From assembly GCA_035506535.1 (NCBI GenBank), contig DATJPE010000063.1, forward strand, positions 163,903-227,902: a stretch of DNA of 64,000 bases. The letters are read 5' to 3'. Positions 35,647 to 61,684 of the stretch are shown here, one piece after another. Under the pieces are notes generated by a model that worked only from the letters and a program-made list of their open reading frames with translations, ran no database searches and had not been told where the DNA came from. Origin of the DNA: Actinomycetes bacterium. Its GTDB lineage: Bacteria > Actinomycetota > Actinomycetes > DATJPE01. Position numbers and translations under genes: made by a program. How positions within the stretch are numbered: the stretch's first letter is position 1; each line of letters opens with the position of its first letter.

Positions 35647-36853
35647 CCGACCCGGTTGGGGGCGCTCGCCCATCCGAGACGACCGCGATGGCGTCGACCA
35701 GGGCTCTCAGGGTGTGGGCAGGGAGCAACCGGTCGCAGTACGGCAGGGCCGCGGCCATCGCACCGACGCGAGGCTCGAAGCCCTCGGCACCGGCGCGGGG
35801 GTTCAGCCAGAACACGCGGTACGCCCTTCGTCGCAGCCGCGCCATCACCCGGTCCAGCTGCTCGGGCGGGTCGCTGTCCCACCCGTCGGAGGCGATCACG
35901 ACGACCGCTCCCCTGAGCAGGTCGCCGTGACGCGACCGCAGCAAGGTGGTCAGGTTGCTCGCGATGCGAGTGCCCCCGAACCGGTCGGTCACCACGGCGC
36001 CGGCTCTCTCGAGCGCCACGTCGACCGACCGGTGGGCCAGCACCGGGGTCAGCCGCGAGAGCTCGGTGGCAAAGGCGAACACCTCGGCGTCGCTCGCCTG
36101 GACGGCTGCTCGCATGAGGTGCAGGTAGGACGTCGCATAGGCCTCCATCGACCGGCTCACGTCGCAGACGAGCACGAGGCGCCGGGGTCGTCGACGGTGC
36201 GCCGAGCGCACCAGCACAGCCGGCTCCCACCCCGTCCGCCTGGCTCGCCCGAGCGTGCGGCGTAGGTCGACGTACGGTCCGCCGGTCCGTGGCTCGAGCC
36301 GACGGCTCCGCCTCGTCGGCCAGCGGGAGAAGGCTTGTTCCAGCCACTCGCCCAAGCGCGCCAGGTCGGCGGGGTCGAGGGCGTCGAAGGGTTGGTCGGC
36401 GATCGCCGAGAGCTCGCTGGGCAGCCGCTGCGGCAGCGCAACCCCCTCGTCCTCGGCCTCGACCGCCGTCTGGAGGGCCGGCAGCGTGGCCCACGGCAGG
36501 GCGCTGCCCTGCTCGGGGCCGCCGTCGGTCCCGCGCACCGGGGCGAGTCGTTCGTCGTCCGCCGCCGCGCTCGGCGCGCCACGGGCGCTCGACCCGGGCC
36601 GGCCGACGTCGAGCTCGACAGCCTCGAAGACCAGCCGATAGAGCTCGTCCCAGATCGGGATCTCGCAGGCCCGGTGCACCAGGCACAGCCGGCCGACCCA
36701 GTAGACGTCGAGCGGCTCCTCGAGAGGGGAGCGCTCCAGCGCCGCGGCGAACACCGCGGCGTCGCCCGTGGTCGCGCTCGCCCCGCGGCGGCGCAGGCGG
36801 TCGGTGAGCCCGATCGCGAACGAGGCCCGGTCGACGCCGGAGAGGACGCTCAC
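35630..36853 (-). CDS. coxE: VWA-domain protein, CoxE family (CO dehydrogenase accessory)
   Basis: A C-terminal VWA domain with a MIDAS motif (LVCDVSRSM) is present. The gene sits in the cox accessory position, and its GTG start overlaps the coxD stop (GTGA). Confidence 0.8.
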   Translation of the reverse strand: MSVLSGVDRASFAIGLTDRLRRRGASATTGDAAVFAAALERSPLEEPLDVYWVGRLCLVHRACEIPIWDELYRLVFEAVELDVGRPGSSARGAPSAAADDERLAPVRGTDGGPEQGSALPWATLPALQTAVEAEDEGVALPQRLPSELSAIADQPFDALDPADLARLGEWLEQAFSRWPTRRSRRLEPRTGGPYVDLRRTLGRARRTGWEPAVLVRSAHRRRPRRLVLVCDVSRSMEAYATSYLHLMRAAVQASDAEVFAFATELSRLTPVLAHRSVDVALERAGAVVTDRFGGTRIASNLTTLLRSRHGDLLRGAVVVIASDGWDSDPPEQLDRVMARLRRRAYRVFWLNPRAGAEGFEPRVGAMAAALPYCDRLLPAHTLRALVDAIAVVSDGRAPPTGSVTARA

Positions 36854-37747
36854 CGGCCCGCGTTCTCCTCAGCGTTGAGGTCGTCCAGCGCGGCCGTGAT
36901 CGCGGCTCGGTCGTCAGGGGTCTTGGCCAGCGTGCCCAGGGTGTCGACGACGTCCTCGCGCACGAGCTCGGAGACACCGAGTGCCGCCAGGGCCCCCAGC
37001 CAGTCGATGGTCTCTGCCATCCCCGGTGCCTTGTCGAGTTCCAGTGAGCGGACCCGCCCCACGAACTGCGCCGCGTCTCGGATCAGGGGTTCGGCGGCCC
37101 CGGGGACCGTGCGTCGGAGGATCTCCACCGCGCGTGCCGGTTCGGGGAACTCGATCCAGTGGTACAGACAGCGGCGGCGCAGCGCGTCGTGCAGCTCGCG
37201 GCTGCGGTTGGAGGTCAGGACGACGTACGGCGGGCGGGCGGCGGTGAACGTCCCCAGCTCCGGGACGGTCACCGCCGCCTCGCCGAGGAACTCGAACAGC
37301 AGGGCCTCGAACTCGTCGTCGGCCCGGTCGACCTCGTCGATCAGCAGGACCGGCGGCAGGGCGCCGGCGTCTCGGATGGCCTGCAGGATCGGCCGCTCCT
37401 GGAGGAACTCCTCGACGAACAGGTCCGAGCCGTGCGGAGTCTCCGCGCGTGCCTCGGCGATGCGGATGGCCAGCAGCTGACGCTGGTAGTTCCACTCGTA
37501 CAGCGCCTCGGCGACGGTGAGGCCCTCATAGCACTGCAACCGGATGAAGCGCGTGCCCAGGGCGCTGGCGAGCGCCTTGGCGGCGGCCGTCTTGCCGACG
37601 CCTGGCTCACCCTCGAGCAGCAGCGGCCTGCCCAGTCGCAGGGCGAGGAAGATCGCGGTCGCCAGGCCGCGGTCGACGAGGTAGTCGACCGCGTCGAGGC
37701 GGCGTTGGACGTCGGCCGCGTCGACGGGCAGGGGTGCGGTGGCGATG
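36850..37747 (-). CDS. coxD: MoxR-family AAA+ ATPase, CoxD-like (CO dehydrogenase accessory); start codon uncertain
   Basis: Walker A GEPGVGKT and Walker B LLIDEVDRA are present. The N-terminus PLPVDAADVQRRLDAVDYLVDRGLATAIFLALRLGRPLLLEG aligns with CoxD. No in-frame ATG/GTG/TTG exists near the expected start; I placed the 5' end at the ATC at 37747. Confidence 0.65.
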
Positions 37748-37759
37748 GGGGCTCTCCCG

Positions 37760-38344
37760 TCACTGGGTGGACAGCAGTCTCGCGTAGTCGTCCCACGTGT
37801 CCACGTCGAGGGGCACGGGGGAGTCCACGTCCTGCTCGACGACGCGGTGTCGACCGGACTCGAGCAGCCGCCACACGCCCTTGTCGCCATGCAGCTCGGC
37901 GAGGTCGCCGAAGACCTCACGGGCCAGCCACAGGGGGTGGCCGCGGCCGTCGACGTAGCGGCACACACCCATCGGCGCCGAGGCGGCGAACACACGCTCC
38001 AGCAGCTCGAGCACGACGGAGGCCCGCACCCCTGGCTGGTCCCCGAGCAGCAGCACGAGCCCGTCGGCCCGGTCGTCCACCACGGGCAGCGCCGCGCGCA
38101 CCGAGGACGCGCACCCGGTGCGGTGGTCGGGGTTGTCCACCACGACCAGGCCCGAGAGGTCGACGCCGCCCCGGACGAGCGGCGCGTCTCCGCCGAGCGC
38201 GACGACCAGCTGGTCGAACTCGCAGGCCCGAGCCGTGGCGAGAGTGGTCCCCAGCACGGTGCCCCCACGGTAGGGGAGCAGCTGCTTGGGGGCGCCGAGT
38301 CGGCTCGACGACCCGGCGGCGAGCACCAGCCCCGTGACGAACAC
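37760..38344 (-). CDS. MocA-like nucleotidyltransferase (molybdenum cofactor cytidylyltransferase family)
   Basis: GTG at 38344. GLVLAAGSSSRLGAPKQLL is the NTP_transf_3 signature, and the C-terminus DVDTWDDYARL matches MocA-type proteins. Confidence 0.75.
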   Translation of the reverse strand: MFVTGLVLAAGSSSRLGAPKQLLPYRGGTVLGTTLATARACEFDQLVVALGGDAPLVRGGVDLSGLVVVDNPDHRTGCASSVRAALPVVDDRADGLVLLLGDQPGVRASVVLELLERVFAASAPMGVCRYVDGRGHPLWLAREVFGDLAELHGDKGVWRLLESGRHRVVEQDVDSPVPLDVDTWDDYARLLSTQ

Positions 38345-38346
38345 GC

Positions 38347-39251
38347 TCAGGCCAGGCCGACCTGCGCGGCGTACCGGTCGCGGCAGGAGCGGCCGCAGAA
38401 CCAGTGCTCGACGCCGCCGACCACCAGGCTGGGGGTGTCCGGGCCGATGAGCACCGTCATGCCGCAGATCGGGTCCGTGGTGGTCGTCGGCACGGCCTGC
38501 TCGTGGCCGGTGGGCGTCACGCCTCCGGCCCGCCTGGCCTGGACGACGGCGGCGAGGATCGACAACGCGATCTCCGCTGGGGTCCGAGCCCCGATGGGCA
38601 CGCCCACGGGTGAGTGGACGAGCGCACGTTCCTCCTCGGCGAGGCCCATCGCGTCGAGGACCGCGCCGCCGCGCTTTCGGCTGGCGACCAGTCCCACGAA
38701 CCCGACGCCCGCATCGAGCGCCGCGCGGACGGCCATGGCCTCGTCGTGGCCGTGAGTGGAGATGACGACGGCCACAGTTCCGCCGCGTGGCGACGCTCCC
38801 GCCGCCGCTCTCGCCACGTCGAACCCCAGGACCTCCGCCAAGGCGACCACGGCCTGCGCGATGGGTGTGTCCCCGACCACCTGCAGCACGTCGGCGGGCG
38901 GCCTCGGTTCGAGGAAGATCTCCAAGGCGCCTCCCGACAGGCACGGGTTCACCACGACGTGCGCCCCCGGGGTCCGCGGGAAGGCGCCGAGGTCGTCGGG
39001 GAGGACCCGCAGGAGGACTGGCTCCCCCGACCTGAGCGAGTCGACCGCGGCGACCCGGACCGACTCCTCCGCGCACTCCCCGCCGACGAAGCCCTCGATG
39101 GTGCCGTCCGACAACACGATCGCCCGGTCACCGGCCCGGGTGGCCGTGGGCGCCTGTGCCCGGACGACGGTCGCGAGGACGTACGGCGTGCGGCTGCGGA
39201 CCAGCTCGCCGACCCGACGGGCCAGGCGTTCGTCGATCTGCTTCTCGAGGC

Positions 39252-39255
<4 letters not shown>
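38347..39255 (-). CDS. XdhC/CoxF/CoxI-family Mo-enzyme maturation factor fused to a C-terminal YHS (putative Cu-binding) domain
   Basis: The GTG at 39255 overlaps the coxL stop (GTGA). The XdhC N-domain (TPYVLATVVRAQAP...GFVGGECAE) and Rossmann part (TVAVVISTHGHDEAMAV) are followed by DPICGMTVLIGPDTPSLVVGGVEHWFCGRSCRDRY, which matches the YHS consensus DPVCGM.V...Y.FCS..C...F. Confidence 0.75.
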
Positions 39256-41638
<2,383 letters not shown>

Positions 41639-41642
<4 letters not shown>

Positions 41643-42130
41643 GACGCGCTCCCCACCTGCTCCGCGGCCATGGCTTCCTTGGCGGCGGCCCACCTGATCG
41701 AGCGGATGATCGTCGAGTATCCGGTGCACCGGCAGATCTGGCCGGAGATGGCCTCGCGGATCTCCTCCTCCGACGGGTCGGGGTTGCGGTCGAGCAGGGC
41801 GCGCGCGGTCATCATCATCCCCGGCGTACAGAACCCGCACTGCAGACCATGGCACTCCATGAAGCCTTGCTGCACGGCATCGAGGCCGGCTGCCGTCTCC
41901 AGCCCCTCGACCGTGCGCACCTCGTGGCCGCTGGCCATGGCAGCGAGGACGGTGCACGACTTCACCGGCTCGCGGTCCAGCCAGACCACGCACGTGCCGC
42001 AGTTGCTCGTGTCGCAGCCCCAGTGGGTCCCGGTGAGACCGAGATGGTCGCGCAGGAAGTGCACGAGGAGCAGCCGCCCCTCGATGTCGGCGGTGACCGG
42101 TTCGCCGTTGACCGTCATCGAGACCTGCAT
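41639..42130 (-). CDS. coxS: CO dehydrogenase small subunit (two [2Fe-2S] clusters)
   Basis: The translation carries a plant-type ferredoxin motif (CDTSNCGTC) and a second cluster motif (CGFCTPG...C.C). Confidence 0.9.
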
Positions 42131-42132
42131 GC

Positions 42133-43011
42133 TCAGACGTCCTCTCCGTTGATCCTGGCCACTGCCCGGCGCAGGGTGCGGCGGGTGAGCTCGTCGGCCA
42201 GGTGTCGCTTGTACTCCTCGCTGCCGCGCATGTCGGCCACCGGGCTGCAGCTTCGCGCCGCGATCGCGCCCGCCTGCTCGTACAGCTCCTCCGAGGGCTG
42301 CTGGCCCCGAAGCAGCTCGGAGATCCCCGGGATGGCCGTCGTGTTGGGCCCGACCGCCGCCAGCCCCACGCGTGCGTCGGTGATCTCGCCGCCGTCCATC
42401 CAGACGGCCGCGCCCGCGGACACCACCGCCCAGTCCCCGGCCCGGCGCTCGACCTTCTCGTAGGCGCTGGAACCGTTCGGCCGGATCGGGATGCGCACCT
42501 CGGTGAGGATCTCGTCGTCACCGACGGCGGTCTCGTACGGCCCGCGGTGGAAGTCCTCCATCGTCACGACCCGCACCCCGGAGCTGCCCACGATCACGCA
42601 GCTGGCGTCAAGGGTCGTGCACACGGCCGAAAGGTCCTCGGAGGGGTCGGCCTGGCACAACGAGCCGCCGATGGTGCCGCGGTTGCGGACCACGGGATCG
42701 GCGATCACCCGCTCCGCGTCGTGGAAGATCGGGAAGATACGGCCGAGCTCCGCCGACTCGAGCAGCTCGCGGTGCCGGGTCATCGCCCCGACCCTGACCT
42801 GGGTCGCCTCGACCGTGATCCCGCCGAGCTCGTCGTGCAGGTCGTTGATGTCGATCAGGTACTCGAAGTTGGCCAGCCTCAGCTTCATCATCGGCAAGAG
42901 GCTGTGGCCGCCGGCCACGAGACGGGCCGAGCTGCCGAGCCGTTCGAGGAGACCGATCGCCTCCTGGACACTGCTGGCTCGCTGGTACTCGAACGGCGCA
43001 GGCACCTGCAT
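42133..43011 (-). CDS. coxM: CO dehydrogenase medium subunit (FAD-binding)
   Basis: FAD-binding PCMH domain (RLVAGGHSLLPMMKLRL, RNRGTIGGSL); 292 aa. Confidence 0.9.
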   Translation of the reverse strand: MQVPAPFEYQRASSVQEAIGLLERLGSSARLVAGGHSLLPMMKLRLANFEYLIDINDLHDELGGITVEATQVRVGAMTRHRELLESAELGRIFPIFHDAERVIADPVVRNRGTIGGSLCQADPSEDLSAVCTTLDASCVIVGSSGVRVVTMEDFHRGPYETAVGDDEILTEVRIPIRPNGSSAYEKVERRAGDWAVVSAGAAVWMDGGEITDARVGLAAVGPNTTAIPGISELLRGQQPSEELYEQAGAIAARSCSPVADMRGSEEYKRHLADELTRRTLRRAVARINGEDV

Positions 43012-43434: not shown

Positions 43435-43791
43435 GTGTTCCACGAGTTCGTCCACGTGTGCTTGCTCGCCTGCGGGCTGATGTTCTGGGTCCCCGTGCTC
43501 GGCCAGGACCCCGCGACCAGGCGTCCGCGCTATCACCGCGGGCTGGCGATGGTCGCGATTGGTGTGCCGGTCTACGCGGCCATAGCGTGGGGGATGTGGG
43601 CCGAGGGGCAGTTCGTCAGCCCTGATCACTCCTTGTCCGACATCCACCTGGGAGCAGTGGCGATGGTCGTCGGTGGCGCCGCCCTGTCGCTCGCCGGCGC
43701 CGCCGTCGCGATGGTGCAGGAGCTCCACCACCGCCGGCTGGTCCGGTCGCGCGCGACCCGGCGCGCCACAAACGTGGTGGCGGCCGCATGA
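43435..43791 (+). CDS. small hydrophobic ORF (possible remnant of a CopD/CtaG-like membrane protein); coding status uncertain
   Basis: There is a high-GC3 frame from the GTG at 43435 (alternative ATG at 43480) to a stop overlapping the moaA ATG (ATGA). The translation is hydrophobic (LLACGLMFWVPVLGQ...LAMVAIGVPVYAAIAWGMWAEG...AVAMVVGGAALSLAGAAVAMV). The upstream 420 bp have no clean ORF. Confidence 0.35.
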   Translation: MFHEFVHVCLLACGLMFWVPVLGQDPATRRPRYHRGLAMVAIGVPVYAAIAWGMWAEGQFVSPDHSLSDIHLGAVAMVVGGAALSLAGAAVAMVQELHHRRLVRSRATRRATNVVAAA

Positions 43792-44801
43792 GCGCCACAC
43801 GGGACGCCTTCGGGCGTCGGCTCGGCGACCTTCGGCTGTCGGTCACCGACCGGTGCAACCTGCGGTGCACGTACTGCATGCCGCGGGAGCTCTTCGGCGC
43901 CAACCACGAGTTCCTGCCTCGTCAGGAGATCCTCAGCTACGAGGAGTTCGCCCGGCTGGTGTCGGTGTTCGCCGGGCTCGGCGTAGGCAAGGTACGGCTC
44001 ACCGGCGGCGAGCCACTTCTGCGCCGCGACGTCGAGACGCTCGTGACCGCCGTCGCCCGCACTCCCGGCATCACCGATGTGGCGATGACGACCAACGGCA
44101 CCCTCCTCGCCGCCCGCGCCGCCTCGCTGCGCGACGCCGGGCTCGACCGGCTGACCGTGAGCCTCGACAGCGTCGACCCGGACACCTTCGCCTCGATGGC
44201 GGACACCCGCGTGGCGCTCCAGACCGTCCTCGACGGCATCGACGCCGCGGTTGCGGCCGGCTTCGCGCCGGTGAAGCTCAACGCCGTGGTGCGCCGGGGG
44301 GTCAACGACGCGGGGATCCTCGACCTGGTGCGCTACGCCCGGGACGGCCGGCACGTGCTGCGCCTCATCGAGTACATGGACGTCGGGGCGACCAACGGCT
44401 GGGTGCTCGACGACGTCGTGCCCGCCGAGGAGATCTTGCGCCGGATCGACGAGGTGTACCCCCTGCGGGCGCTGGCCCCTGCCCGCCCCGGAGAGGTGGC
44501 CAAGCGCTGGGCGTACGCCGACGGCGGCGGCGAGATCGGACTGATCACCTCGGTGAGCCGGCCCTTCTGCGGGGACTGCACCCGCGCGCGAATCACCTCG
44601 ACCGGCGAGCTGTTCACCTGCCTGTTCGCCTCCCGTGGGACCGATCTGCGGGCCTTGCTGCGGGGCGGGGCGACCGATGAGGACCTTCGCCAGGCGATCC
44701 GGCGGGTCTGGGCCTCCCGCGACGACCGCTATTCCGAGCTGCGGCACCAGCTGACCCCCGCCCACCCGGCGCGCGCCGAGATGTCCTACCTCGGCGGCTG
44801 A
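43788..44801 (+). CDS. moaA: GTP 3',8-cyclase (molybdenum cofactor biosynthesis protein A, radical SAM)
   Basis: Radical-SAM motif CNLRCTYCMP and a MoaA C-terminal cluster (CGDCTRARITSTGELFTCLF). Confidence 0.9.
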   Translation: MSATRDAFGRRLGDLRLSVTDRCNLRCTYCMPRELFGANHEFLPRQEILSYEEFARLVSVFAGLGVGKVRLTGGEPLLRRDVETLVTAVARTPGITDVAMTTNGTLLAARAASLRDAGLDRLTVSLDSVDPDTFASMADTRVALQTVLDGIDAAVAAGFAPVKLNAVVRRGVNDAGILDLVRYARDGRHVLRLIEYMDVGATNGWVLDDVVPAEEILRRIDEVYPLRALAPARPGEVAKRWAYADGGGEIGLITSVSRPFCGDCTRARITSTGELFTCLFASRGTDLRALLRGGATDEDLRQAIRRVWASRDDRYSELRHQLTPAHPARAEMSYLGG

Positions 44802-44904
44802 CCCGCCGCCTCGGCAAGCCCTGCCTCGCGGGTGCCGGTTGAGGACCAAGGTCCCGGTGTCGCGGGCAGTTGGCCCGCGGCAGCGGCTGGCCGGAGGGGC
44901 CAGC

Positions 44905-45519
44905 ATGGAGGAGGCTTCATCGCGAGGAGGCGGGCTGCGCGTGTTCCAGATCCGGGTCCACGGCCGAGGCGGGCAGGGCGTGGTCACGACAGCCGAGCTG
45001 CTGTCGGTGGCCGCGTTCCTCGACGGTCACGAGGCACAGGCCTTCCCGAGCTTCGGCTCCGAGCGGATGGGCGCGCCCGTCATGGCGTTCTGCCGGATCG
45101 ACCACGTGCCCATCAGGGTGCGCGAGCCGGTGGCCGAGCCCGACGCCGTGATCGTGTCCGACCCGACCCTGCTCCACCACGTCGCGGTCTTCGCCGGCCT
45201 GGATCCGGACGGGTACGTGCTCATCAACTCCACGCACGGATGGGAGGAGCTCGGCCTGGCCGACCTGCACGAGTCGCACCGGCCGGAGCGGCTGGTCACC
45301 GTCCCGGCCACCGAGATCGCGCGCAGGTACACCGGCCGCCCGCTTCCCAACGCCTGCCTGCTCGGCGCGTTCGTCGCGCTCACCGGGGTGGTGGCCATGG
45401 ACTGCGTCGAACAAGCGATCCGCGAGCGGTTCTCGACGCGGGTCGCCGAGGGCAACATCGCCGCCGCGCTCGCGGCGTACGAGCGTGCCGGTGCTCGCGA
45501 GGAGGCCCTCGATGCGTAG
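44905..45519 (+). CDS. 2-oxoacid:ferredoxin oxidoreductase gamma subunit (PorC-like)
   Basis: ATG at 44905 follows GGAGGGG. The translation (IRVHGRGGQGVVTTAELLSVAAF...ERMGAPV) matches the POR/KOR gamma subunit fold. Confidence 0.8.
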   Translation: MEEASSRGGGLRVFQIRVHGRGGQGVVTTAELLSVAAFLDGHEAQAFPSFGSERMGAPVMAFCRIDHVPIRVREPVAEPDAVIVSDPTLLHHVAVFAGLDPDGYVLINSTHGWEELGLADLHESHRPERLVTVPATEIARRYTGRPLPNACLLGAFVALTGVVAMDCVEQAIRERFSTRVAEGNIAAALAAYERAGAREEALDA

Positions 45520-46762
45520 GCAGATTGAAGGCTCCCGAGCCATCGCCGAGACCGTCGCCTGCTGCCGCCCCGGGGTCGTGGCCGCCTACCCCATCACGCC
45601 CCAGACGCACATCGTCGAGGCCCTCGGATCGGCGGTGAAGAGCGGTGCGCTCACCGGGTGCCGCTTCATCCCCGTCGAGTCCGAGTTCGCTGCGATGTCG
45701 GCGTCGATCGGGGCCTCGGCCGCCGGCTCGCGCGCCTATACCGCGACAGCCAGCCAGGGGCTGCTGTACATGACCGAGGCACTGTTCAACGCCTCCGGTC
45801 TCGGGCTGCCCATCGTCATGACCGTCGCCAATCGCGCGATCGGGGCCCCCATCAACATCTGGAACGACCAGAGCGACTCGATGAGCCAGCGCGACTGCGG
45901 CTGGGTGCAGCTGTACGCGGAGGACAACCAGGCCGCGGTCGATCTCCACGTGCTCGGGTTCCGGCTGGCGGAGGAGTTGTCCGTCCCCGTCATGGTGTGC
46001 ATGGACGGGTTCGTTCTCACCCACGCCGTCGAGCCCATCGACGTCCCGGCCCAGGAGCAGGTCGACGCCTTCCTGCCGTCTTATCGGCCGCAACAGGTGC
46101 TGGACCCCGACGAACCGGTCACCATCGGCGCGATGGTGGGCCCCGAGGCGTTCACCGAGGTCCGCTACCTCGCCCACCACCACCAGCTGCGGGCGCTCGA
46201 GATCCTGCCGTCGCTCGCCCAGGAGCTTCATGCGGTTCTGGGGCGGACGGTCGCGCCGTTGACGGCGTACGGCGTCGACGGCGCCGAGACCGTCGTCGTC
46301 ACGATCGGGTCGGCCACCGGGACCATGCGCGACGTCGCGGACGAGCTCGAGGCCCGCGGGGAGCAGATCGGCGTGCTCGCGCTCACCGCCTTCCGCCCGT
46401 TCCCGTACGCGGAGGTGCGCTCGGCTCTGGAGGGTGCCACGCACGTGATCGTCCTCGAGCGCGCCTTCGCCCCGGGGGCCGGCGGAATCGTGAGCTGCGA
46501 TGTGGCATCGGCGCTCGAGGACCTGCCGGTCGACGTGAGCACCGTCGTCGCCGGCCTGGGCGGTCGGGCGGTGAGCAAGAGCTCGCTGCACCGGATGCTC
46601 GCCGACGCCGCGGACGGCCGGCTGGCGCGCCTGGCCTTCCTCGACCTGCAGACCGACCTGGTCGAGCAGGAACTGGCCCGCGTCGGGCACCCGCAACGGA
46701 CGCGGTCTCCGACCCTCGACGTGCTGCGCGACGCAGGCGTCCCCGGCTCGCGGGTCCGGTGA
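45512..46762 (+). CDS. 2-oxoacid:ferredoxin oxidoreductase alpha subunit (PorA-like)
   Basis: The translation (GSRAIAETVACCRPGVVAAYPITPQTHIVE) shows POR alpha domains I and II; about 416 aa. Confidence 0.85.
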   Translation: MRRQIEGSRAIAETVACCRPGVVAAYPITPQTHIVEALGSAVKSGALTGCRFIPVESEFAAMSASIGASAAGSRAYTATASQGLLYMTEALFNASGLGLPIVMTVANRAIGAPINIWNDQSDSMSQRDCGWVQLYAEDNQAAVDLHVLGFRLAEELSVPVMVCMDGFVLTHAVEPIDVPAQEQVDAFLPSYRPQQVLDPDEPVTIGAMVGPEAFTEVRYLAHHHQLRALEILPSLAQELHAVLGRTVAPLTAYGVDGAETVVVTIGSATGTMRDVADELEARGEQIGVLALTAFRPFPYAEVRSALEGATHVIVLERAFAPGAGGIVSCDVASALEDLPVDVSTVVAGLGGRAVSKSSLHRMLADAADGRLARLAFLDLQTDLVEQELARVGHPQRTRSPTLDVLRDAGVPGSRVR

Positions 46763-46772
46763 GGAGGCCGTC

Positions 46773-47777
46773 ATGCCCACGCAGGACGTGAAGTTCTATC
46801 AGGTGGGAAGCCGTGCCGTCGGGAACCGGCTGCTCGACGAGGAACAGCGCACCGAGCAGGCCAGTCCCCTGCGGCGCAACTCGCTGAACTCCGGCCACCG
46901 TGCCTGTCAAGGGTGCGGGGAGGCGCTCGGCGCGCGCTACGTCGTCGACGCGGCGTACCGCGCGACCGGGGGGCGCCTGGTGGTCGTGAACGCGACCGGC
47001 TGCCTGGAGGTGTTCTCCTCCCCCTACCCAGAGAGCTCCTGGCAGGTGCCGTGGCTGCACTCGGTGTTCGCCAACGCGCCCGCGGTCGCCGCGGGAGTCG
47101 CCGCCGCCCTGGAGGCCCAGGGACGGACCGACGTACGCGTTCTCGCGCAAGGTGGTGACGGTGGGACCGTCGACATCGGACTGGCCTGCCTGTCCGGCAT
47201 GTTCGAGCGAAACGACGACGTGTTCTACGTCTGCTACGACAACGAGGCGTACATGAACACCGGCGTGCAGCGCTCCGGTGCGACGCCGGCGTACGCCCGC
47301 ACGGCGACCACCGAGGCGGTCGGACCCGAGCCCGGCAACCCGATCGGGCAGGGCAAGGACGTCCCGAGGATCGCGATGGCGCACGACATCCCCTACGTCG
47401 CCACGGCGACGGTCGCGGAGCTGCACGACCTCGAGGCCAAGGTGGCCCGCGCGATGGCGATGCGTGGAGCGCGGTACCTGCACGTGCTCGTCCCGTGCCC
47501 CCTCGGGTGGGGGTCGGCGGCATCGGACACGGTGCGCCTGGCCAGGCTCGCGCAGCGCAGCGGACTGTTCCCGGTCTTCGAGGCCGAGCACGGCGAGGTC
47601 ACGTCGGTGCTCCCCATCCGCGGTCAGGTACCCGTCGAGGACTACCTGCGTCCCCAGAAGCGATACGCCCACCTGTTCCGTGAGCCCGAACGCACCGACC
47701 TGATCGCGCGGATCCAGGGGGTCGCCGACCGCACCATCGCTCGCTACGGGCTGCTGCGAGACGGAGGGGAACGGTGA
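46773..47777 (+). CDS. 2-oxoacid:ferredoxin oxidoreductase beta subunit (ThDP-binding, PorB-like)
   Basis: A GAGGAGG RBS precedes the ATG. The translation has an N-terminal Cys cluster SGHRACQGCGE and a ThDP motif GDGG...N. Confidence 0.85.
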   Translation: MPTQDVKFYQVGSRAVGNRLLDEEQRTEQASPLRRNSLNSGHRACQGCGEALGARYVVDAAYRATGGRLVVVNATGCLEVFSSPYPESSWQVPWLHSVFANAPAVAAGVAAALEAQGRTDVRVLAQGGDGGTVDIGLACLSGMFERNDDVFYVCYDNEAYMNTGVQRSGATPAYARTATTEAVGPEPGNPIGQGKDVPRIAMAHDIPYVATATVAELHDLEAKVARAMAMRGARYLHVLVPCPLGWGSAASDTVRLARLAQRSGLFPVFEAEHGEVTSVLPIRGQVPVEDYLRPQKRYAHLFREPERTDLIARIQGVADRTIARYGLLRDGGER

Positions 47778-49402
47778 TGGAGAAGCCCTTCGCGATCACC
47801 CTCGACGTGCGGTCCAGCCTGGCCAACCACACCGGCACCTGGCGCACCGAACGGCCGGTGTACGTCGACCGGGAGCCGCCGTGCAACGCGAACTGCCCGG
47901 CGGGCGAGGACATCCAGGGCTGGCTCTATGCCGCGGAGGACGGCAGCTACGAGGCGGCCTGGCGTCATCTGGTGGCCGTCAACCCCTTCCCCGCGGTGAT
48001 GGGCCGGGTCTGCTACCACCCGTGCGAGACGGCGTGCAACCGCGCGCAGCTCGACACCGCGGTCGGCATCAACTCCGTCGAGCGCTTCCTCGGCGACGAG
48101 GCGATCGCCCGCGGCTGGGACCTGCCGAGCCCGCAGGCCGGGACCGGCAAACGCGTCCTCGTCGTGGGCGCGGGGCCGTGCGGGCTCTCCGTCGCCTACC
48201 ACCTCCGGCAGGGCGGCCACGAGGTGGAGATCCACGACGCCGGCGACCAGGCGGGCGGGATGATGCGCTACGGCATCCCGACGTTCCGGCTTCCGCGGCA
48301 CATCCTCGACCACGAGATCGACCGGCTGCTGGCCACGGGCATCACGTTGCGCCCGAGCACGACGGTGACCGACCTGCTCGCCACCTTGCGCGACGGCGGC
48401 TTCGACGCCGCCTTCCTCGCCGTCGGCGCTCAGCTCAGCCATCGGACCTACGTCCCCGCGGGACAGTCCGCGCGCATCCTCGACGCGCTCGACGTCCTGG
48501 CGCGCACGGAGGGTGGCGAGCGCCCGCAGCTCGGCCGCCGGGTCGCGGTGTACGGCGGAGGCAACACCGCCATGGACGTCGCCCGGACCGCCCGTCGTCT
48601 CGGCGCCGACGAGGCCGTGGTCGTCTACCGGCGCACGCGCGAGCGGATGCCCGCCGACGACGTCGAGGTGCGCGAGGCGCTGGAGGAGGGTGTGCAGATC
48701 CGTTGGTTGTCGACGGTGAAGCACGCCGACGGCGGCCGACTGACGCTGGAGCGCATGGAGCTCGACGACGAGGGCGTGCCTCAGCCGACCGGTGAGTTCG
48801 ACGAGCTCGAGGCCGACTCCCTCGTCCTCGCGCTCGGCCAGGACGTCGACCACTCCCTCGTCGACTCGTTGCCCGGCGTTCAGGTCACCGACGGCGTCGT
48901 GCAGGTCGGTCCGGACATGATGACGGGCTACCCCGGGGTCTTCGCCGGCGGTGACATGGTCCCGTCGACCCGTTCGGTGACGGTCTCGATCGGGCACGGC
49001 CGTACGGCGGCCCGACACATCGACGCCTGGCTGCGGGGCGGCGCCGTCGAGCCGGCCGTCGAGCGCGAGCCGGCGGACTTCGAGCTGCTCAACACGTGGT
49101 ACTACAGCGACGCCCCGCGCACCATGCGCCCGAGGCTGGACGCGGCTCGCCGGGTCTCCGACTTCGCCGAGGTGGTCGGGGGGCTGGACTCCGAGACAGC
49201 GCTGTTCGAGGCGCGACGGTGCCTGTCGTGCGGCAACTGCTTCGGCTGCGACAACTGCGTGGGGGTGTGCCCGGACAACGCGGTCCTCAAGGTCGACGCG
49301 GCGCACGGCTACGCGATCGACTACGACTACTGCAAGGGCTGCGGCATCTGCGTCGAGGAGTGTCCCTGCGGCGCGATCACCATGGAGCCCGAGATCACCT
49401 GA
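47777..49402 (+). CDS. fusion protein: GltD-like FAD/NAD(P)H pyridine-nucleotide oxidoreductase with a C-terminal 2x[4Fe-4S] ferredoxin (POR delta-like) domain
   Basis: N-terminal Fe-S Cys motifs are CNANCPAGEDIQ and VCYHPCETACNRAQ. They are followed by dinucleotide folds (VLVVGAGPCGLS and VAVYGGGNTAMD). The C-terminus has two ferredoxin CxxCxxCxxxCP motifs (CLSCGNCFGCDNCVGVCP, CKGCGICVEECPCGA). A GTG at 47774 is an alternative start. Confidence 0.8.
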   Translation: MEKPFAITLDVRSSLANHTGTWRTERPVYVDREPPCNANCPAGEDIQGWLYAAEDGSYEAAWRHLVAVNPFPAVMGRVCYHPCETACNRAQLDTAVGINSVERFLGDEAIARGWDLPSPQAGTGKRVLVVGAGPCGLSVAYHLRQGGHEVEIHDAGDQAGGMMRYGIPTFRLPRHILDHEIDRLLATGITLRPSTTVTDLLATLRDGGFDAAFLAVGAQLSHRTYVPAGQSARILDALDVLARTEGGERPQLGRRVAVYGGGNTAMDVARTARRLGADEAVVVYRRTRERMPADDVEVREALEEGVQIRWLSTVKHADGGRLTLERMELDDEGVPQPTGEFDELEADSLVLALGQDVDHSLVDSLPGVQVTDGVVQVGPDMMTGYPGVFAGGDMVPSTRSVTVSIGHGRTAARHIDAWLRGGAVEPAVEREPADFELLNTWYYSDAPRTMRPRLDAARRVSDFAEVVGGLDSETALFEARRCLSCGNCFGCDNCVGVCPDNAVLKVDAAHGYAIDYDYCKGCGICVEECPCGAITMEPEIT

Positions 49403-55413: not shown

Positions 55414-56070
55414 ATGACTCCTGTCAAGAGCTCGCGAGCTGGCGCGTCGCGCAAGGAGCAGGCACGCACGACGGCCCTGCGGATCGTCCGAGCCGCCCAT
55501 ACGCTCTTCATCGAGCGGGGATACACCGGCACGCGGATGGCCGATGTCGCCGACGCGGCAGGGGTAGCCGTCCAGACCGTGTACTTCCGGTTTCACACCA
55601 AGGCGGAGCTGCTCCATGCCTGCTACGAGCTGGCCGTGCTCGGCGAGGACGACCCGCGTCCCCCGATGGAACAGGCCTGGTTCGCGATGTTCGTGTCGGC
55701 ACGATCCGGCCCGGCCGCCATCCGCGCCTTCGCGGAGGGCAACACCGGGATCGCCACGAGGGTCGGCCAGCTCGACGACATCGTGCGCAGCGCCGTGCAC
55801 GAGCCGGAGGCCGTCGAGGTACGCCGGCGCAGCGAACAACTGCGGCGCGACGGTTACCGGCAGATGCTCCAGTCGCTCCACGATCGCTTCGGGCTGCGCG
55901 ACGGGCTGGACGTGCAGCGGGGGACCGACCTCCTCCTCGCCTTCGGAGGGACCGCGCTATGGCGCCCTCTCGTCGTCGAGTACGGCTGGACGACCGAGGA
56001 CTTCGTCGGATTGCTCACGGACGTCCTGTGCGACCAGCTCCTGCCACCCCGGCGCCGCCGGGCCCGCTGA
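55414..56070 (+). CDS. TetR family transcriptional regulator
   Basis: ATG at 55414; the longer GTG ORF from 55384 would cover the operator sites. The HTH is GYTGTRMADVADAAGVAVQTVYFRFHTKAELL. Confidence 0.75.
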   Translation: MTPVKSSRAGASRKEQARTTALRIVRAAHTLFIERGYTGTRMADVADAAGVAVQTVYFRFHTKAELLHACYELAVLGEDDPRPPMEQAWFAMFVSARSGPAAIRAFAEGNTGIATRVGQLDDIVRSAVHEPEAVEVRRRSEQLRRDGYRQMLQSLHDRFGLRDGLDVQRGTDLLLAFGGTALWRPLVVEYGWTTEDFVGLLTDVLCDQLLPPRRRRAR

Positions 56071-57076
56071 TCCGCGAGCCTGCCGCGCGCAGCCCGGCGG
56101 CCCACCCCGGGGCTCTGCCCAGGCCCGGCGGGTCGACCCCGCTCAGCTCGTGGCCGCTTCTGGCGAGGAGCCAGGACACGAGGCTGTTGGAGTTCCACAT
56201 CTCCCCGTAGCCACGTTCGTCGCGCCCCCACGTCAGGGTCGGGAACGAGGCGGCGAGGTCGAGCAGCGCGCGTACGCGCGATGAGTCCGTGGACAGCCGC
56301 ATCGGGGGACCGACACGCGCGTCGAGATCGGGGATGACCCCGTCGCGCCAGAGCCGAACCTCGTAGCGAAACCAGCGCGATCGCCCCCAGGACCTGAGCC
56401 CCACGGGCCCCGAGCAGACGACACCGCGGTCGCCACGGGGCCCTGACCAAGCGGGTGCCATCTCGACGGTGTACGGAACACCGTCCGCTGTCACCTCGAG
56501 CGCCGAATGGAAGAGCTGGCCGGGCCGGCGATGGTCGCGCCACGACTGGAGGAGCTCGAAGAGACGGCCACTCGCGCGGACCAGGCCGATCCGGTCGCCG
56601 GCCCCGAGCGGGATCCAGGACAGCGCGACCGACCAGCCGCGCGTGCAGAGCACGGCGACCACCTCGTCGGCTGCGCGCCCGACGGCGGCGGCCACGGCCT
56701 CGGACAGCTCGGACCCGACCGCGACGCTCGCCGCCTCGACGCCGACCACGGTGAGCCGAGCGGGCAGGCGGCCCAGGCCCCGGGCCAGCTCGATCGACTC
56801 GCGGACGCCGAACCCGTGGGTGCCTCCGGCACGGGGCGGGGACCGCTCGGCGGCCTGGTCCACGACGACAGATCCCGGCGGTCGGCCGGAGCGGATCGCG
56901 TCGACGACGACGACGTCGTCCCAGCCCTGCCAGGCGTCCACGAGCCGAGTGGGGACGGGGACGGCCATGAGCTCCAGGTCAGGCGTCGCGCGGCGGCGCA
57001 GCTCCTCGACCACCGCCAAGCCGACGCCGTCGTCCCCCCGGTACGGATTGCCGACTCCCACCACGAGCGCCCTCAC
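56015..57076 (-). CDS. hydrogenase maturation endopeptidase (HyaD/HybD family) carrying an additional ~190-aa C-terminal domain of unknown function
   Basis: The GTG at 57076 overlaps the large-subunit stop (GTGA). The translation is (M)[26 protein letters not shown]...DAIRSG, and the protease domain ends near residue 150. The frame continues uninterrupted to 56015. Confidence 0.65.
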
Positions 57077-58383
57077 GAGCGGTCCACCGTCACGTCGAGG
57101 AAGTGCGTCGCGCAGGAGATGCACGGGTCGTAGTTGCGGATCGCCTGCTCGCAGCGGCGGGTGAGCTCCTCGTCGTCGAGAGCGAGATTGGCCTGGGTGA
57201 AGCTCAGGAGGTCCGCCTCGATGCTCGCCTGGTTCTGCGACGTTGGCGGGACGATGCGGGCGTCGAGGATCGAGCCGTCGGCGTCGATCTCGTACCGGTG
57301 GAAGAGCACCCCGCGAGGCGCCTCTGTCGCGCCGTAGCCGACGCCGGCCCGCGGCGCCACCTCCACCGACGGTGCCGAGGCACCGGTCCAGCCGTCGATG
57401 ATGGCCAGCGCCTCCTCGCAGGCGTAGACGGTCTCCACTGCGCGCACGACGATGGAGCGGAACGGGTTGCGGCAGGGGGCGCCGAGCCCCGCCTCACTGG
57501 CTGCCTCCGCCGCACGTGGTGAGAGCCGGTCGGCGTTGAGCGCGTACCGCGCGAGGGGGCCCACGGCGTAACGTGCGCCGGACCCGGCGAGGTGCGAGTG
57601 CAGCGCGGTCGATCGTGCGACGTGCTCCTCGACGACGTGTCGGTCCAGCTCGGCGGCGTCGAAGGCCAACCCGCCCGTGGTCGTCACGCGACCACGCTCC
57701 AGCGGATAACCTTCGCCGGGCGCGCGCAGCGCGAGGTACTCGTGCGGCTGCTCGAAGACGGGGAACGCGAAAGTTCCCACGAGGCGGACTGTCTCCAGCG
57801 CGTCATCGAGCGCCTGTGCGAGCGCCGGACGGAGGTCGTCGAGCTCCTCACGGTGGGGCAGGCGATAGAAGCCGCCGACACGGACGTTCACCGGATGGAC
57901 GGAGCGACCGCCCACCAGGGTCATGAGCGCGTTGCCCGCCTTCTTCAGCCGCAACCCTCGCTCGACGACCTCGCGGTGGTCGCGCGCGAGGTCGATCGCG
58001 CTGTCGTAGCCGAGGAAGTCGGGGGCGTGCAGGAGATAGACGTGCAGCGAATGGCTCTCGATCCACTCGCCGCAGTAGAGCAACCGCCGCATGCGCCGGA
58101 TCTCGTCGGGAACCTCGACACCGCACGCCGCCTCGATGGCCTGGCAGGCACTCATCTGGTAGGCCACCGGGCAGATTCCGCAGATGCGCGCGGTGATGTC
58201 CGGCGCCTCCACGAACGAGCGTCCACGCAGCAGCGCCTCGAAGAACCTGGGCGGCTCGTAGATCCTCAGTTCGACCTCGGTGACCCGCCCGTCGACCACC
58301 CGGACGTGCATCGCCCCCTCGCCCTCGACGCGTGCCAGCGCGTCGACGCGCAGCAGGTGGTCACCGTCATGCGCGTGAGTCAT
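57073..58383 (-). CDS. [NiFe]-hydrogenase large (alpha) subunit, cytoplasmic group-3-like
   Basis: ATG at 58383 follows GGAGGAGG. The N-terminal motif is [10 protein letters not shown]. The C-terminal [18 protein letters not shown] has the DPCxxCxxH Ni-Fe site plus a short extension that the protease would remove. Confidence 0.9.
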
Positions 58384-59161
58384 GCGTGTCGGCCTCCTCC
58401 CGGAAGGCGGGCGCCTCGGCGGTGAACGTACGCAGGATCCGGACCACATCCGGCTCGCCCATCCCGTTCTCGAGCAGCCGCCCGACGAGCGACCCGACAT
58501 TGACGCCCGGGGCAGGCCCGAAGCACCCGTAGCAGCCTCGAGCGCAGGACGGGCACAACGCGCCGCAGCCGGACTGGGTCACCGGTCCGAGGCACGCCTG
58601 TCCGTGCGCGACGACGACGCAGACGTTGCCGCGACGCTTGCAGTCCGCGCAGACCGTCTCGGCCGGGATGCGCGGCGTACGTCCGTCCAGGTACGCCACG
58701 ACCACCTCGAGAAGCTGTCGCCGGTCGACCGGGCACCCGTGCAGCTCGAAGTCCACCGGCACGTGGGCGGAGATCGGCGTGGACCGGGCCAAGGTGTCGA
58801 TGTACTCGGGGCGGGCGTAGACGAGCGAGGTGAACTCGCCGACGTCGGCGAAGTTGCGTAGCGCCTGGATGCCCCCGCTGGTGGCGCAGGCGCCGATCGA
58901 GACGAGTCGGCGCGAGGCCCGTCGGATCTCCTGGACGCGTTCCAGGTCTGCGGGGGTCGTGATGGACCCTTCGACCAGCGACAGGTCGTAGGGTCCGTCG
59001 ACGTGGGCGCTGGAGGCCTCGGTGAAGTGTGCGATCTCGACGGCGTCGGCGAGCAGGAGCAGCTCGTCCTCGCAGTTCAGCAGGGTCAGCTGGCAGCCGT
59101 CGCAGGACGCGAACTTCCACACGGCCAGCCGTGGGCGAGCCGTCGCACCTCGAATCGTCAT
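58367..59161 (-). CDS. [NiFe]-hydrogenase small (delta) subunit, cytoplasmic type (no Tat signal)
   Basis: 264 aa. The proximal-cluster Cys motifs are FASCDGCQ and GACATSGG. There is no twin-arginine signal or C-terminal anchor. The ATG at 59161 overlaps the gamma stop (ATGA). Confidence 0.85.
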
Positions 59162-59967
59162 CACAGCCCCCGCATCGTCATGAGGGTGCGCGCGCGGTCG
59201 TAGCCGAGAACCGGGCCGTCGACGCACACGAACACCTCGCGAAGCTGGCAGTGACCGCAGAGCCCCACACCGCAGCGCATGTTGCGCTCCATGGACACCC
59301 GGATCTGCGACGGCACGACGCCCCGACGTACGAGCGCGTCTGCCGTGAGACGCATCATGACCTCCGGGCCGCACACGAGCACCAGAGTCGCGGCCGGGTC
59401 GAGGTCGGGCAGCACGTCGGTCACCAGGCCGACGTTGCCACGCCACGACGGCTCTCCGGCATCGACGGTCACCACGACGTCGAGATCGTCGCGAGCGGCC
59501 CACTCCTCCAGCTGAGGTCGGTAGAGCAGGTCGGTAGGTGTTCGGCTGCCGACGACGACGACGACACGACCGTAGCGCTCGCGGTGCCGCAGCACTGCGA
59601 GGACGACCGGGCGCACGGGGGCAAGGCCGATCCCGCCGGCCACCACGAGGACGTCTCCGTCGGTACCGCTCTCCTCCTCCCAGCCCCGACCGTACGGGCC
59701 CCGCGCGAAGACCGGATCGCCCACCGCGCAGCGCGTCAACGCGGCGGTCGCGTCCCCCACCGCCCGAACCGTGTGCATGAGACGCGCTGGCTCGTCAGGG
59801 TCGCCGCTGATGGAGATGGGTACCTCGCCGAAGCCCGGGCGGCCCACCATGGCGAACTGGCCCGGCCGGAACGCCATGGGGATGCCATCCACCGGTGCCA
59901 GCCCGAGCGTGACCGTGTCATGGGTCTCGGCTTGGACGTCCAGCACGGTGAACCGCCGCGGGAGCAT
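59161..59967 (-). CDS. hydrogenase gamma subunit: FNR-like FAD/NAD(P)-binding oxidoreductase with a C-terminal [2Fe-2S] motif
   Basis: ATG at 59967. The FAD-binding barrel ([22 protein letters not shown]) and NAD-binding domain ([11 protein letters not shown]) are followed by a C-terminal Cys cluster (CGVGLCGHC). Confidence 0.8.
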
Positions 59968-59995
59968 CGGCTCCGGCGGGGCGGGGCGAGTCCGC

Positions 59996-60463: not shown

Positions 60464-60465
60464 GC

Positions 60466-61569: not shown

Positions 61570-61684
61570 GGCGCTCCTACGAGGTCGACAGGCACACGAT
61601 CGGATCCGGCGCGGGACCGACAGACCCATGGTGTCGCGCCGCGCGCCACCCGGACAGGGTCACTGGTCCCCCACGTGCACGCGT

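Follow-up and report, generated by a model that had tools for sequence, protein, structure and literature searches.

The DNA analysed here is a 64-kb stretch of an Actinomycetes contig (the window), and the subject of this text is a set of four consecutive genes on its forward strand, at positions 44905-49402, which are predicted to encode a thiamine diphosphate (ThDP)-dependent 2-oxoacid oxidoreductase whose delta subunit is merged with a pyridine nucleotide-dependent flavoprotein. The G+C content of the window is about 71% and the raw lists of open reading frames (ORFs) were noisy; coding frames were picked by the G+C content at third codon positions (GC3), which is 0.89-0.95 in the four frames, and all four are real coding genes. 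The first, a porC-like gene of the gamma subunit (44905-45519, 204 aa from the ATG, GC3 0.91), matches PF01558 (E 9e-41) and TIGR02175 (185 bits against a cutoff of 81), the POR domain of PorABCD-type enzymes. A longer ORF could start from the TTG at 44839; the ATG at 44905, with GGAGGGG ahead of it, is the most plausible start. The porA-like gene of the alpha subunit (45512-46762, 416 aa; POR_N, E 7e-67, and PFOR_II, E 5e-24) has its ATG inside the gamma stop region, with an overlap of 8 nt (ATGCGTAG), and is followed after a gap of 10 nt, containing GAGGAGG, by the porB-like gene of the beta subunit (46773-47777, 334 aa; TPP_enzyme_C), which is predicted to bind ThDP and a proximal [4Fe-4S] cluster. 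The fourth gene (gene 4) starts with ATG at 47777 or GTG at 47774, ends at 49402 and encodes a 541-aa protein that matches NF009410 (PRK12771) over its full length; its start overlaps the beta stop (GTGATG), and it is translationally coupled to porB. A separate gene call on the source contig (ENA ERZ27256505) gave identical alpha, beta and gene-4 products. A first-pass annotation had proposed the same order, gamma, alpha, beta and a 541-aa protein with overlapping or adjacent stops and starts, and both its coordinates and its gene content were confirmed by GC3, the Pfam and NCBIfam matches and these junctions.

The catalytic subunits are closest, among PDB chains, to those of the four-subunit pyruvate:ferredoxin oxidoreductase (PFOR) of Methanosarcina acetivorans: alpha to 9bt4_B (E 8e-102) and beta to 9bt4_C (E 5e-88). 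In the alignment with 9bt4_B the pocket motifs of alpha, YPITPQTHIVE and VANRA..APINIWND, are identical to those of the M. acetivorans enzyme, whereas oxalate oxidoreductase, the second PDB match, has a different pocket (YPIRPYT). The beta subunit keeps C45, C48, C77 and C242 of the 9bt4_C alignment, together with the ThDP motif GGDGG...YDNEAYMNTG. PorA, PorB and PorC are also the top equivalog-level NCBIfam families of alpha, beta and gamma, respectively, and pyruvate is probably the substrate of this 2-oxoacid:ferredoxin oxidoreductase (OFOR) core. A stand-alone porD, expected to encode a 2x[4Fe-4S] protein of about 80-105 aa, was looked for among the window genes and not found in the cluster, and the only other ferredoxin-type motif in the window belongs to a hydrogenase beta subunit; thus, the OFOR has no alternative delta subunit there.

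Both ends of gene 4 resemble PorD. Its C-terminal dicluster domain (residues 488-541, positions 49238..49399, with cysteines 488, 491, 494, 498, 519, 522, 525 and 529) scores 67.6 bits with the PorD_KorD model TIGR02179 over profile positions 25-77, above the cutoff of 60.05, and residues 487-536 match residues 32-80 of 9bt4_G, the 85-residue PorD chain of the four-subunit PFOR, with an E value of 1.2e-11. For the first 33 residues the best match in the whole PDB is the other part of the same chain (9bt4_G residues 3-32, E 0.004). This N-terminal arm (residues 4-33, PFAITLDVRSSLANHTGTWRTERPVYVDRE, positions 47786..47875) also gives weak PorD profile matches at positions 6-31, and its residues T19, G20, W22 and P27 are invariant across 80 sequences of 35-81% identity. 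Since the matched segments of 9bt4_G are 3-32 and 32-80, the two ends of gene 4 tile one complete PorD with a break at about residue 32.

The sequence between these halves belongs to the NfnB/GltD type of Fe-S flavoproteins. An Fe-S region (residues 34-113, positions 47876..48115), which carries C36, C40, C79, C83, C87 and E102, matches Fer4_20 over profile positions 29-112 only and is followed by FAD- and NADPH-binding Rossmann domains (residues 124-425, positions 48146..49051; Pyr_redox_2, E 7.5e-30) with the motifs VVGAGPxG and VYGGGNTAMD and with YRR at 284-286. The Fe-S region has only five cysteines; the missing GltD C-x2-C is situated near the C-terminus, as C482 and C485, at the end of a displaced element (residues 436-487, positions 49082..49237) that matches positions 4-51, the start, of the GltD profile TIGR01318. 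Gene 4 therefore lacks the canonical order, in which an N-terminal C-x2-C-x4-C-x3-C-P precedes the body. When residues 436-487 were joined ahead of residues 34-425 in an artificial construct, so that RCLSCGN abutted PPCNANCP, the rejoined sequence aligned without a break to NfnB (4ylf_B 14-461 and 5jca_L 8-470) and GltD (6s6s_G 16-471) and outscored the native residue order by 15-25 bits. A two-piece alignment in the order of gene 4 was also obtained for StnC (8oh5_C) and for NfnA of NfnABC (9bov_A, 9n5u_A), and gene 4 thus shares its topology with the cassette of these proteins.

Judged from these alignments, gene 4 is a PorD whose sequence breaks off at about residue 32 to make room for a circularly permuted NfnB/GltD cassette. 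It scores 732.8 bits with NF009410 ('NAD(P)-binding protein'; cutoff 516), residues 5-540 covering positions 18-565 of the 566 in the profile. A plain tandem GltD-PorD fusion, also considered, was rejected on account of the split PorD halves and the permuted Fe-S motif. The domain annotation of 47777-49402 (Fer4_20, Pyr_redox_2 and the PorD_KorD dicluster), which the first-pass annotation had suggested, agrees with it on the two dinucleotide-binding folds and the C-terminal delta-type 2x[4Fe-4S] ferredoxin domain and modifies it in two respects: five cysteines of the supposed GltD-type N-terminal motifs are in place, but the C-x2-C is found at 482/485, and the delta-ferredoxin and the GltD-like oxidoreductase are both present in gene 4, but through insertion of a permuted cassette and not through an end-to-end fusion. 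An AlphaFold2 (AF2) model of gene 4, made with a deeper alignment that included a related gamma-fused family, reached pLDDT 90.9 and pTM 0.89, only residues 1-9 being disordered; an earlier model from 26 close homologues (pLDDT 63, Fe-S regions <50) was discarded. In a Foldseek search with the AF2 model the best solved neighbours were NfnA and StnC (TM 0.78-0.79 over approximately 590-614 columns), and canonical NfnB, GltD and DPD followed with TM 0.65-0.67 over approximately 420 columns.

Cluster ligands were mapped through the 4ylf_B alignment and the published ligand list of Thermotoga maritima NfnB (PMC7596348). The distal-cluster ligands C39, C42, C47 and C100 of NfnB correspond to C482, C485, C36 and C87 of gene 4, and the proximal-cluster ligands C51, C90, C96 and E117 to C40, C79, C83 and E102. 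All eight NfnB-type ligands and the eight ferredoxin cysteines are invariant in 81 close homologues; they stay so when 54 gamma-fused relatives (35-43% identity) are added, except C494, conserved at >=90%, and the positions are mostly kept in representatives of 50%-identity clusters too. Gene 4 is therefore predicted from sequence to hold FAD and four [4Fe-4S] clusters, with one further cluster in beta. C485 and C488 are so near each other in the chain, with two residues between them, that the NfnB-type distal cluster is expected to lie close to the first PorD-type cluster. The triplet Y284-R285-R286 is found where NfnB has its YRR motif, which binds the 2'-phosphate of NADPH and by which DsrL-2, specific for NADP(H), differs from DsrL-1, specific for NAD(H) (PMC7596348); the triplet is invariant in the close family and indicates a probable NADP(H) specificity of gene 4. 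In a minority of distant full-length relatives (P0137, P0141, P0147, P0155, P0163, P0189 and P0204 among them) YRR is replaced by xLE types such as LALE, VCLE and ACIE, which suggests that these may be NADH-using variants of the chimera.

A protein database search with gene 4 returned at least 8,000 matches, the top 120 of them with 71-100% identity, under such names as 'NAD(P)-binding protein', 'glutamate synthase' and '2-oxoacid:acceptor oxidoreductase delta subunit'. A scan of one genome per species found a relative in at least 391 species, and the best 80 loci (65-78% identity), in which the homologue is close to full length, were used for synteny: by record title, 43 are from Actinomycetota, mostly Solirubrobacterales, 36 from Pseudomonadota (Burkholderiales, Gallionellaceae, Rhodobacteraceae, Lamprocystis and others) and one is labelled Saccharimonadales (L058), possibly owing to a binning error. 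A cultured carrier is Ramlibacter sp. AN1133 (L040). Of the 69 loci in which the gene directly upstream of the gene-4 homologue could be tested, 65 have beta there, and two of the other four are overlap artefacts; further upstream, alpha is present in 66/67 and gamma in 64/65. Overall, about 65 of 67 testable loci keep the complete order gamma, alpha, beta and gene 4. The beta stop and the start of the gene-4 homologue are mostly spaced by -8 to +11 nt. The survey for the four-gene arrangement that the first-pass annotation had called for thus shows an order kept across two phyla, and the four-gene design is widespread in soil and freshwater bacteria. The gene-4 proteins are still 65-70% identical between Actinomycetota and Alpha-, Beta- and Gammaproteobacteria and the four-gene unit moves whole, which points to its probable horizontal transfer between the phyla.

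A search among cluster representatives yielded 4,182 clusters at E <= 1e-30, the wider GltD-like superfamily included, and revealed fused forms. Relatives of about 750 aa combine the POR gamma domain, the arm, the cassette and the dicluster (P0154, P0169, P0173, P0200, P0220); they form a large family with the operon order [fusion]-alpha-beta, which ties the cassette independently to OFOR catalysis. In IorA-like relatives of about 1,000-1,130 aa, POR_N and TPP_enzyme_C precede the cassette and dicluster (P0254, P0266, P0203). The cassette was observed on IorA-like POR_N and TPP_C, on dihydroorotate dehydrogenase-like (DPD-like) and on HdrA/MvhD(FlpD)-containing proteins (P0254, P0266, P0203, P0265, P0251), and it appears to behave as a portable NAD(P)H plug. 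One gamma-fused operon (L082) is followed by a gene of ADP-forming acetyl-CoA synthetase. Directly upstream of this operon (L082, 1-2360) there is a second OFOR set, alpha-beta-gamma, without a delta gene, and genes of a response regulator, a universal stress protein and CBS/ACT proteins are located between the two sets.

Taken together, the four genes would encode a heterotetrameric-type ThDP-dependent 2-oxoacid oxidoreductase, most likely acting on pyruvate, with its electron outlet hard-wired to NADP(H) and not to free ferredoxin; we give this reading a probability of about 0.7. The net reaction would be pyruvate + CoA + NADP+ <-> acetyl-CoA + CO2 + NADPH. In the proposed path, electrons would leave ThDP at the alpha/beta active site by way of beta with its proximal [4Fe-4S] cluster and enter gene 4 at the two PorD-type clusters of its C-terminal domain. 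From there they would move on to the NfnB-type distal cluster, to which the C-terminal segment would contribute C482 and C485 and the N-terminal segment C36 and C87, then to the NfnB-type proximal cluster (C40, C79, C83, E102), to FAD and, finally, to NADP+ at the YRR site. Gene 4 would dock on the catalytic subunits in the manner of PorD, via its N-terminal arm and dicluster domain, and the new termini of the permutant, being at the distal cluster, may have allowed insertion into PorD just before its first cysteine motif.

We infer from homology that coupling is to NADP(H) and, by analogy with StnC and NfnA, that electron transfer is linear and non-bifurcating. The GltD domain of StnC (aa 102-565) holds FAD, NADPH and two [4Fe-4S] clusters and feeds a linear Fe-S chain without bifurcation, and its FAD-proximal cluster has a non-cysteine ligand, K170 (PMC10482914), which aligns with E102 of gene 4; NfnA of NfnABC works like StnC, passing electrons of NADPH one at a time into an Fe-S wire (PMC11829005). 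With regard to direction, the NADP+/NADPH couple has a potential of about -320 to -380 mV. Since PFOR clusters sit below it, at about -385 to -505 mV (PMC12337175), electron flow from pyruvate to NADP+ should be downhill, and oxidative decarboxylation would be the thermodynamically favoured direction.

Several points weigh against this reading. The match of the arm to PorD is short (30 residues, E 0.004), the AF2 model of gene 4 contains neither cofactors nor partner subunits, and a literature search found no biochemical study of any family member. Free ferredoxin might still be an exchange partner of the outermost PorD-type cluster. Two loci, L057 (Trebonia) and L025, are true exceptions to the synteny, with no por genes in the flanks examined, so that either the flavoprotein can occur detached or the por genes are elsewhere in these genomes. 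The proteins of these loci (L057 7983-9650, from a metagenome-assembled genome of Trebonia sp., and L025 1222-2922) are about 69% identical to gene 4, with arm and cysteines intact; the neighbours in L057 are two Zn-alcohol dehydrogenase-like genes, a CBS protein gene and an acetyl-CoA hydrolase/transferase-family gene. Finally, the catalytic subunits score below the equivalog cutoffs of their best families (PorA 427 against 550, PorB 323 against 405 and PorC 195 against 225 bits), for which reason the identity of the substrate is not secured.

This last point leaves some room for another substrate, such as 2-oxoisovalerate or other branched-chain 2-oxoacids, 2-oxobutyrate or an aryl-pyruvate, the complex then being an NADP-linked VOR- or IOR-like enzyme of amino acid catabolism. 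The VOR families are not far behind the Por ones (alpha 270 against 427 bits, beta 273 against 323), the cassette also occurs in relatives whose catalytic unit is IorA-like, and the phenylglyoxylate:NAD+ enzyme, known here by its NCBIfam family names, is an aryl precedent. However, pyruvate enzymes are the best match at every subunit, both in 9bt4 and among the PorA/B/C families, and the pocket motifs are those of M. acetivorans PFOR. Among other OFOR models, that of OGOR, TIGR03710, scores very low (53-109 bits against a cutoff of 483), and the Pad models are far under their cutoffs (PadE 132 against 300, PadG 240 against 700 and PadI 174 against 700 bits). Pyruvate is further supported by linkage of the por cluster to the gene of phosphoenolpyruvate (PEP) synthase, its commonest neighbour, which passes the equivalog cutoff (863 against 598 bits) and in 19 loci precedes porC on the same strand, the median distance being about 4 nt. 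A substrate other than pyruvate is, thus, considered unlikely.

The same linkage can be read in the opposite direction, the enzyme working as an NADPH-driven pyruvate synthase (acetyl-CoA + CO2 + NADPH -> pyruvate) that is pulled by PEP synthase and enables aerobes and microaerophiles to make PEP from C2 units. Besides the close position of an equivalog-level PEP synthase, GAPDH genes are found nearby in 10 loci and PGK genes in five, OFORs are reversible (PMC12337175), many carriers fix CO2 or come from CO2-rich niches (Gallionellaceae, Sideroxydans, Lamprocystis), and the window itself has a DabA inorganic-carbon transporter. Against this, the transfer from NADPH to the acetyl-CoA/pyruvate couple would be uphill by roughly 100-180 mV and the conserved cluster has no bifurcation partner; other conserved neighbours, such as the CoA-transferase or, in L082, the ADP-forming acetyl-CoA synthetase, suggest catabolism, and PEP synthase itself is hypoxia-induced in Mycobacterium smegmatis and of unclear direction there. 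Net pyruvate synthesis by this enzyme therefore seems quite improbable.

The homology of the cassette to bifurcating NfnB/NfnL raises the question of whether gene 4 bifurcates or confurcates electrons, coupling NADPH and the OFOR to a third partner, either NAD+ or free ferredoxin; the outer PorD-type cluster could be solvent-exposed. This is very unlikely, as the conserved four-gene unit includes no NfnA/NfnS-like or BfuBC-like partner, there is a single Fe-S path out of FAD, and the nearest structural relatives, StnC and NfnA of NfnABC, use the cassette as a non-bifurcating NADPH entry (PMC10482914, PMC11829005). The view of gene 4 as an independent NAD(P)H oxidoreductase ('glutamate synthase small-subunit-like') beside an incomplete three-subunit OFOR, as its database names 'glutamate synthase' and 'NAD(P)-binding protein' and the two loci without por neighbours might suggest, is largely refuted by the presence of both PorD halves in gene 4, its coupling to porB, near-universal synteny, the fused relatives, the lack of a gltB or nfnA partner (the annotated window genes were seen to contain no GltB- or NfnA-type domain) and an OFOR otherwise devoid of a delta subunit. 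The same findings, together with the NfnB/GltD module, make gene 4 an integral part of the OFOR, and neither of the situations that would have undone the first-pass annotation, an unrelated stand-alone oxidoreductase or fragmentary por genes, was encountered.

The pyruvate:NADP(H) reading has a possible physiological setting. Recurrent neighbours of the por cluster, apart from PEP synthase, are genes of an acetyl-CoA hydrolase/transferase-family protein, GAPDH, PGK and universal stress proteins, and in other loci a LuxR-type response regulator, an M50-CBS protease, WS/DGAT and large subunits of [NiFe]-hydrogenases. Oxygen limitation is a likely setting, in which the enzyme would replace pyruvate dehydrogenase and give acetyl-CoA and NADPH; a role in hypoxic metabolism is plausible. 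The DosR hypoxia regulon of M. smegmatis includes the group 3b hydrogenase Hyh, triacylglycerol (TAG) synthases and a putative PEP synthase induced 70-fold (preprint 10.1101/2023.09.11.557286). A group 3b-like NAD(P)-linked hydrogenase is encoded 6.6 kb from the por cluster (56.0-61.6 kb of the window). Palindromes resembling GGGAC-N4-GTCCC, with one mismatch each, are found at 44842-44855, before porC, and at 61657-61670, just upstream of the hydrogenase cluster. The former (AGGACCAAGGTCCC), with a DosR-box-like core 50 nt upstream of the porC ATG, is a tentative regulatory site of low confidence. The number of DosR-like palindromes in the window is at the chance level (8 observed, 9.6 expected); similar sites occur 15-45 nt upstream of porC in three of 62 upstream regions (L001, L002 and L017), or 0.15/kb against a background of 0.03/kb. 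Judging by the positions of the two palindromes, the por and hydrogenase clusters may share a DosR-type regulator. Scans for consensus promoters and terminators at 42.9-50.0 kb found nothing, the sigma-70 rules being uninformative for a GC-rich organism.

The universal stress protein, LuxR-type regulator, M50-CBS protease, WS/DGAT, PEP synthase, CoA-transferase and hydrogenase neighbours, the group 3b-like hydrogenase of this window, the palindromes, the M. smegmatis regulon and the 65-70% identity across phyla hint at a broader picture, which is offered tentatively and is possible rather than probable as a whole. The complex would be a bacterial counterpart of the pyruvate:NADP+ oxidoreductase (PNO) of Euglena, an enzyme of otherwise aerobic soil and freshwater bacteria that in Actinomycetota would belong to DosR-type hypoxia regulons. 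Its acetyl-CoA and NADPH might feed storage lipids, TAG or wax esters, and surplus NADPH might be vented as H2 via an NADP-coupled group 3b [NiFe]-hydrogenase. The insertion of a permuted NfnB/GltD cassette into PorD would have been a rare event, followed by transfer between Actinomycetota and Pseudomonadota.

The first-pass annotation had pointed to the location of the por genes next to CO dehydrogenase and hydrogenase genes. Both clusters are indeed present in the window; their proximity to the por genes is not conserved in other genomes. The flanking genes moaA, CoxM/S, amidase and APH recur beside the por cluster in none of the 80 related loci, and a functional link of moaA, CO dehydrogenase and hydrogenase of this window with the por genes, considered on the basis of synteny, was rejected as a conserved feature. 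The aerobic CO dehydrogenase-type Mo-hydroxylase cluster occupies 35630-43011 on the reverse strand and comprises CoxM-like (42133-43011), CoxS-like (41639-42130), CoxL-like (39252-41642; residue 375 marks AYACSFR, the signature of form I) and CoxE-like VWA (35630-36853) genes. The moaA gene (43788-44801, forward strand) is divergent from this cluster and belongs functionally with it, not with the por genes.

The [NiFe]-hydrogenase cluster (56015-61629, reverse strand) encodes a HycI-type protease, the large subunit (57073-58500), a gamma subunit with DHOD-B-like FAD/NAD(P) features (59161-60039) and a beta subunit with Fer4_22 (60466-61629). The best NCBIfam matches are to the NAD(P)-dependent sulfhydrogenases ShyA/B/C and HydA/B/G, all below equivalog cutoffs, and the small-subunit candidate (58380-59120) matches no NCBIfam family at E <= 1e-10. 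The cluster is adjoined by a gene for a DabA-type inorganic-carbon transporter subunit (61747-63966, reverse strand; PF10070, E 9e-182). A putative catabolic cluster at 27648-33086, also on the reverse strand, encodes a ThDP enzyme with an acetolactate synthase-like fold, an Amidohydro_2 protein, a DAO-type FAD oxidoreductase and an aldehyde dehydrogenase. Four well-supported coding frames, 14177-15457, 3060-4736, 1770-2579 and 37739-38755, have GC3 of 0.85-0.91 and no Pfam match at E <= 1e-5.

If the wiring is as predicted, many nominally aerobic bacteria own a pyruvate oxidoreductase of the oxygen-sensitive type that is linked directly to the NADP(H) pool, which would change models of carbon and reductant flow for soil Actinomycetota and for iron- and sulfur-oxidising Proteobacteria under oxygen limitation. 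It would also provide metabolic engineering with a ferredoxin-independent module for the interconversion of pyruvate and acetyl-CoA + CO2, and evolutionary studies with a clean natural case in which circular permutation at an Fe-S cluster has made it possible to insert one domain into another. The enzyme is directly testable, and its four genes fit into a compact operon of about 4.5 kb.

Several elements of this design are already known: OFOR-NAD(P)+ coupling via a GltD-family flavoprotein, the permuted cassette of StnC and NfnA, and the NCBIfam model NF009410. In the literature search no description was found of the por-linked chimera, of the split-PorD and permuted-cassette architecture or of its occurrence across aerobic lineages. 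Compared with PorABCD, represented by the M. acetivorans PFOR (9bt4), the system has homologous gamma, alpha and beta subunits, the ThDP motif, the proximal-cluster cysteines, the pocket motifs and the PorD arm and dicluster. In the archaeal enzyme, however, PorD is a free 85-aa protein, whereas here it is split at about residue 32 by an FAD/NADPH/2x[4Fe-4S] cassette of about 450 aa; the gene order is gamma-alpha-beta-delta', with delta' last, and the predicted acceptor is NADP+ instead of ferredoxin.

PadEFGHI, the phenylglyoxylate:NAD+ oxidoreductase, has its delta subunit and flavoprotein as separate subunits. Like the 2-oxoglutarate:NADP+ oxidoreductase (KGOR) of Azoarcus evansii, it resembles the present system in having an OFOR core from which a GltD/NfnB-type Fe-S flavoprotein conveys the electrons to a pyridine nucleotide; it differs in belonging to another catalytic lineage, the Pad models (NCBIfam NF0457xx) scoring far below cutoff here. 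The GltD-family subunit of KGOR is reported in a later paper (PMC10134865, citing Ebenau-Jehle et al. 2003), and the core of that enzyme, KorABC, is of the two-subunit KorAB type, unlike the Por gamma/alpha/beta core described here.

StnC (8oh5_C) and NfnA of NfnABC (9bov_A, 9n5u_A) share with gene 4 the permuted order of the cassette, the body being followed by a '...RCLxCG' element, and a non-cysteine fourth ligand at the same position, Lys there and Glu in gene 4. In them the cassette is an inserted, non-bifurcating NADPH->FAD->2x[4Fe-4S] entry into an Fe-S wire, as is predicted for gene 4; their host, however, is a NuoG/Fdh-like scaffold with the bifurcating subunits BfuBC, while here it is an OFOR delta subunit, and a Pfam search of the 541 aa of gene 4 found no NuoG/Fdh-like scaffold domains. 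With canonical NfnB/NfnL, GltD and the N-terminal module of DPD, gene 4 has in common the FAD and NADPH Rossmann domains, seven cysteines plus Glu/Gln as ligands, two [4Fe-4S] clusters and YRR; in contrast to NfnB and GltD, it is permuted, has the PorD arm and dicluster in addition, and is partnered by por genes rather than by GltB or NfnA. DsrL is also similar: its NfnB-like body is joined by a linker to a C-terminal 2x[4Fe-4S] ferredoxin domain, from which a partner enzyme receives the electrons, and a split between YRR and non-YRR forms predicts the use of NADPH or NADH. In DsrL, however, the N-terminal ferredoxin-like motif is in its canonical position, a PorD arm is lacking and the partner enzyme is DsrAB (PMC7596348).

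The PNO of Euglena and Cryptosporidium has the same predicted net reaction and a similarly proposed use at low oxygen. It is a single-chain PFOR fused to a cytochrome P450 reductase (CPR)-like FMN/FAD domain. In Euglena it oxidises pyruvate in anaerobiosis, replacing pyruvate dehydrogenase, and is linked to wax-ester synthesis (PMC8611851). Gene 4, in contrast, has no flavodoxin, FAD_binding_1 or CPR domains in a Pfam search, and the likeness of the two NADP modules is convergent, not homologous.

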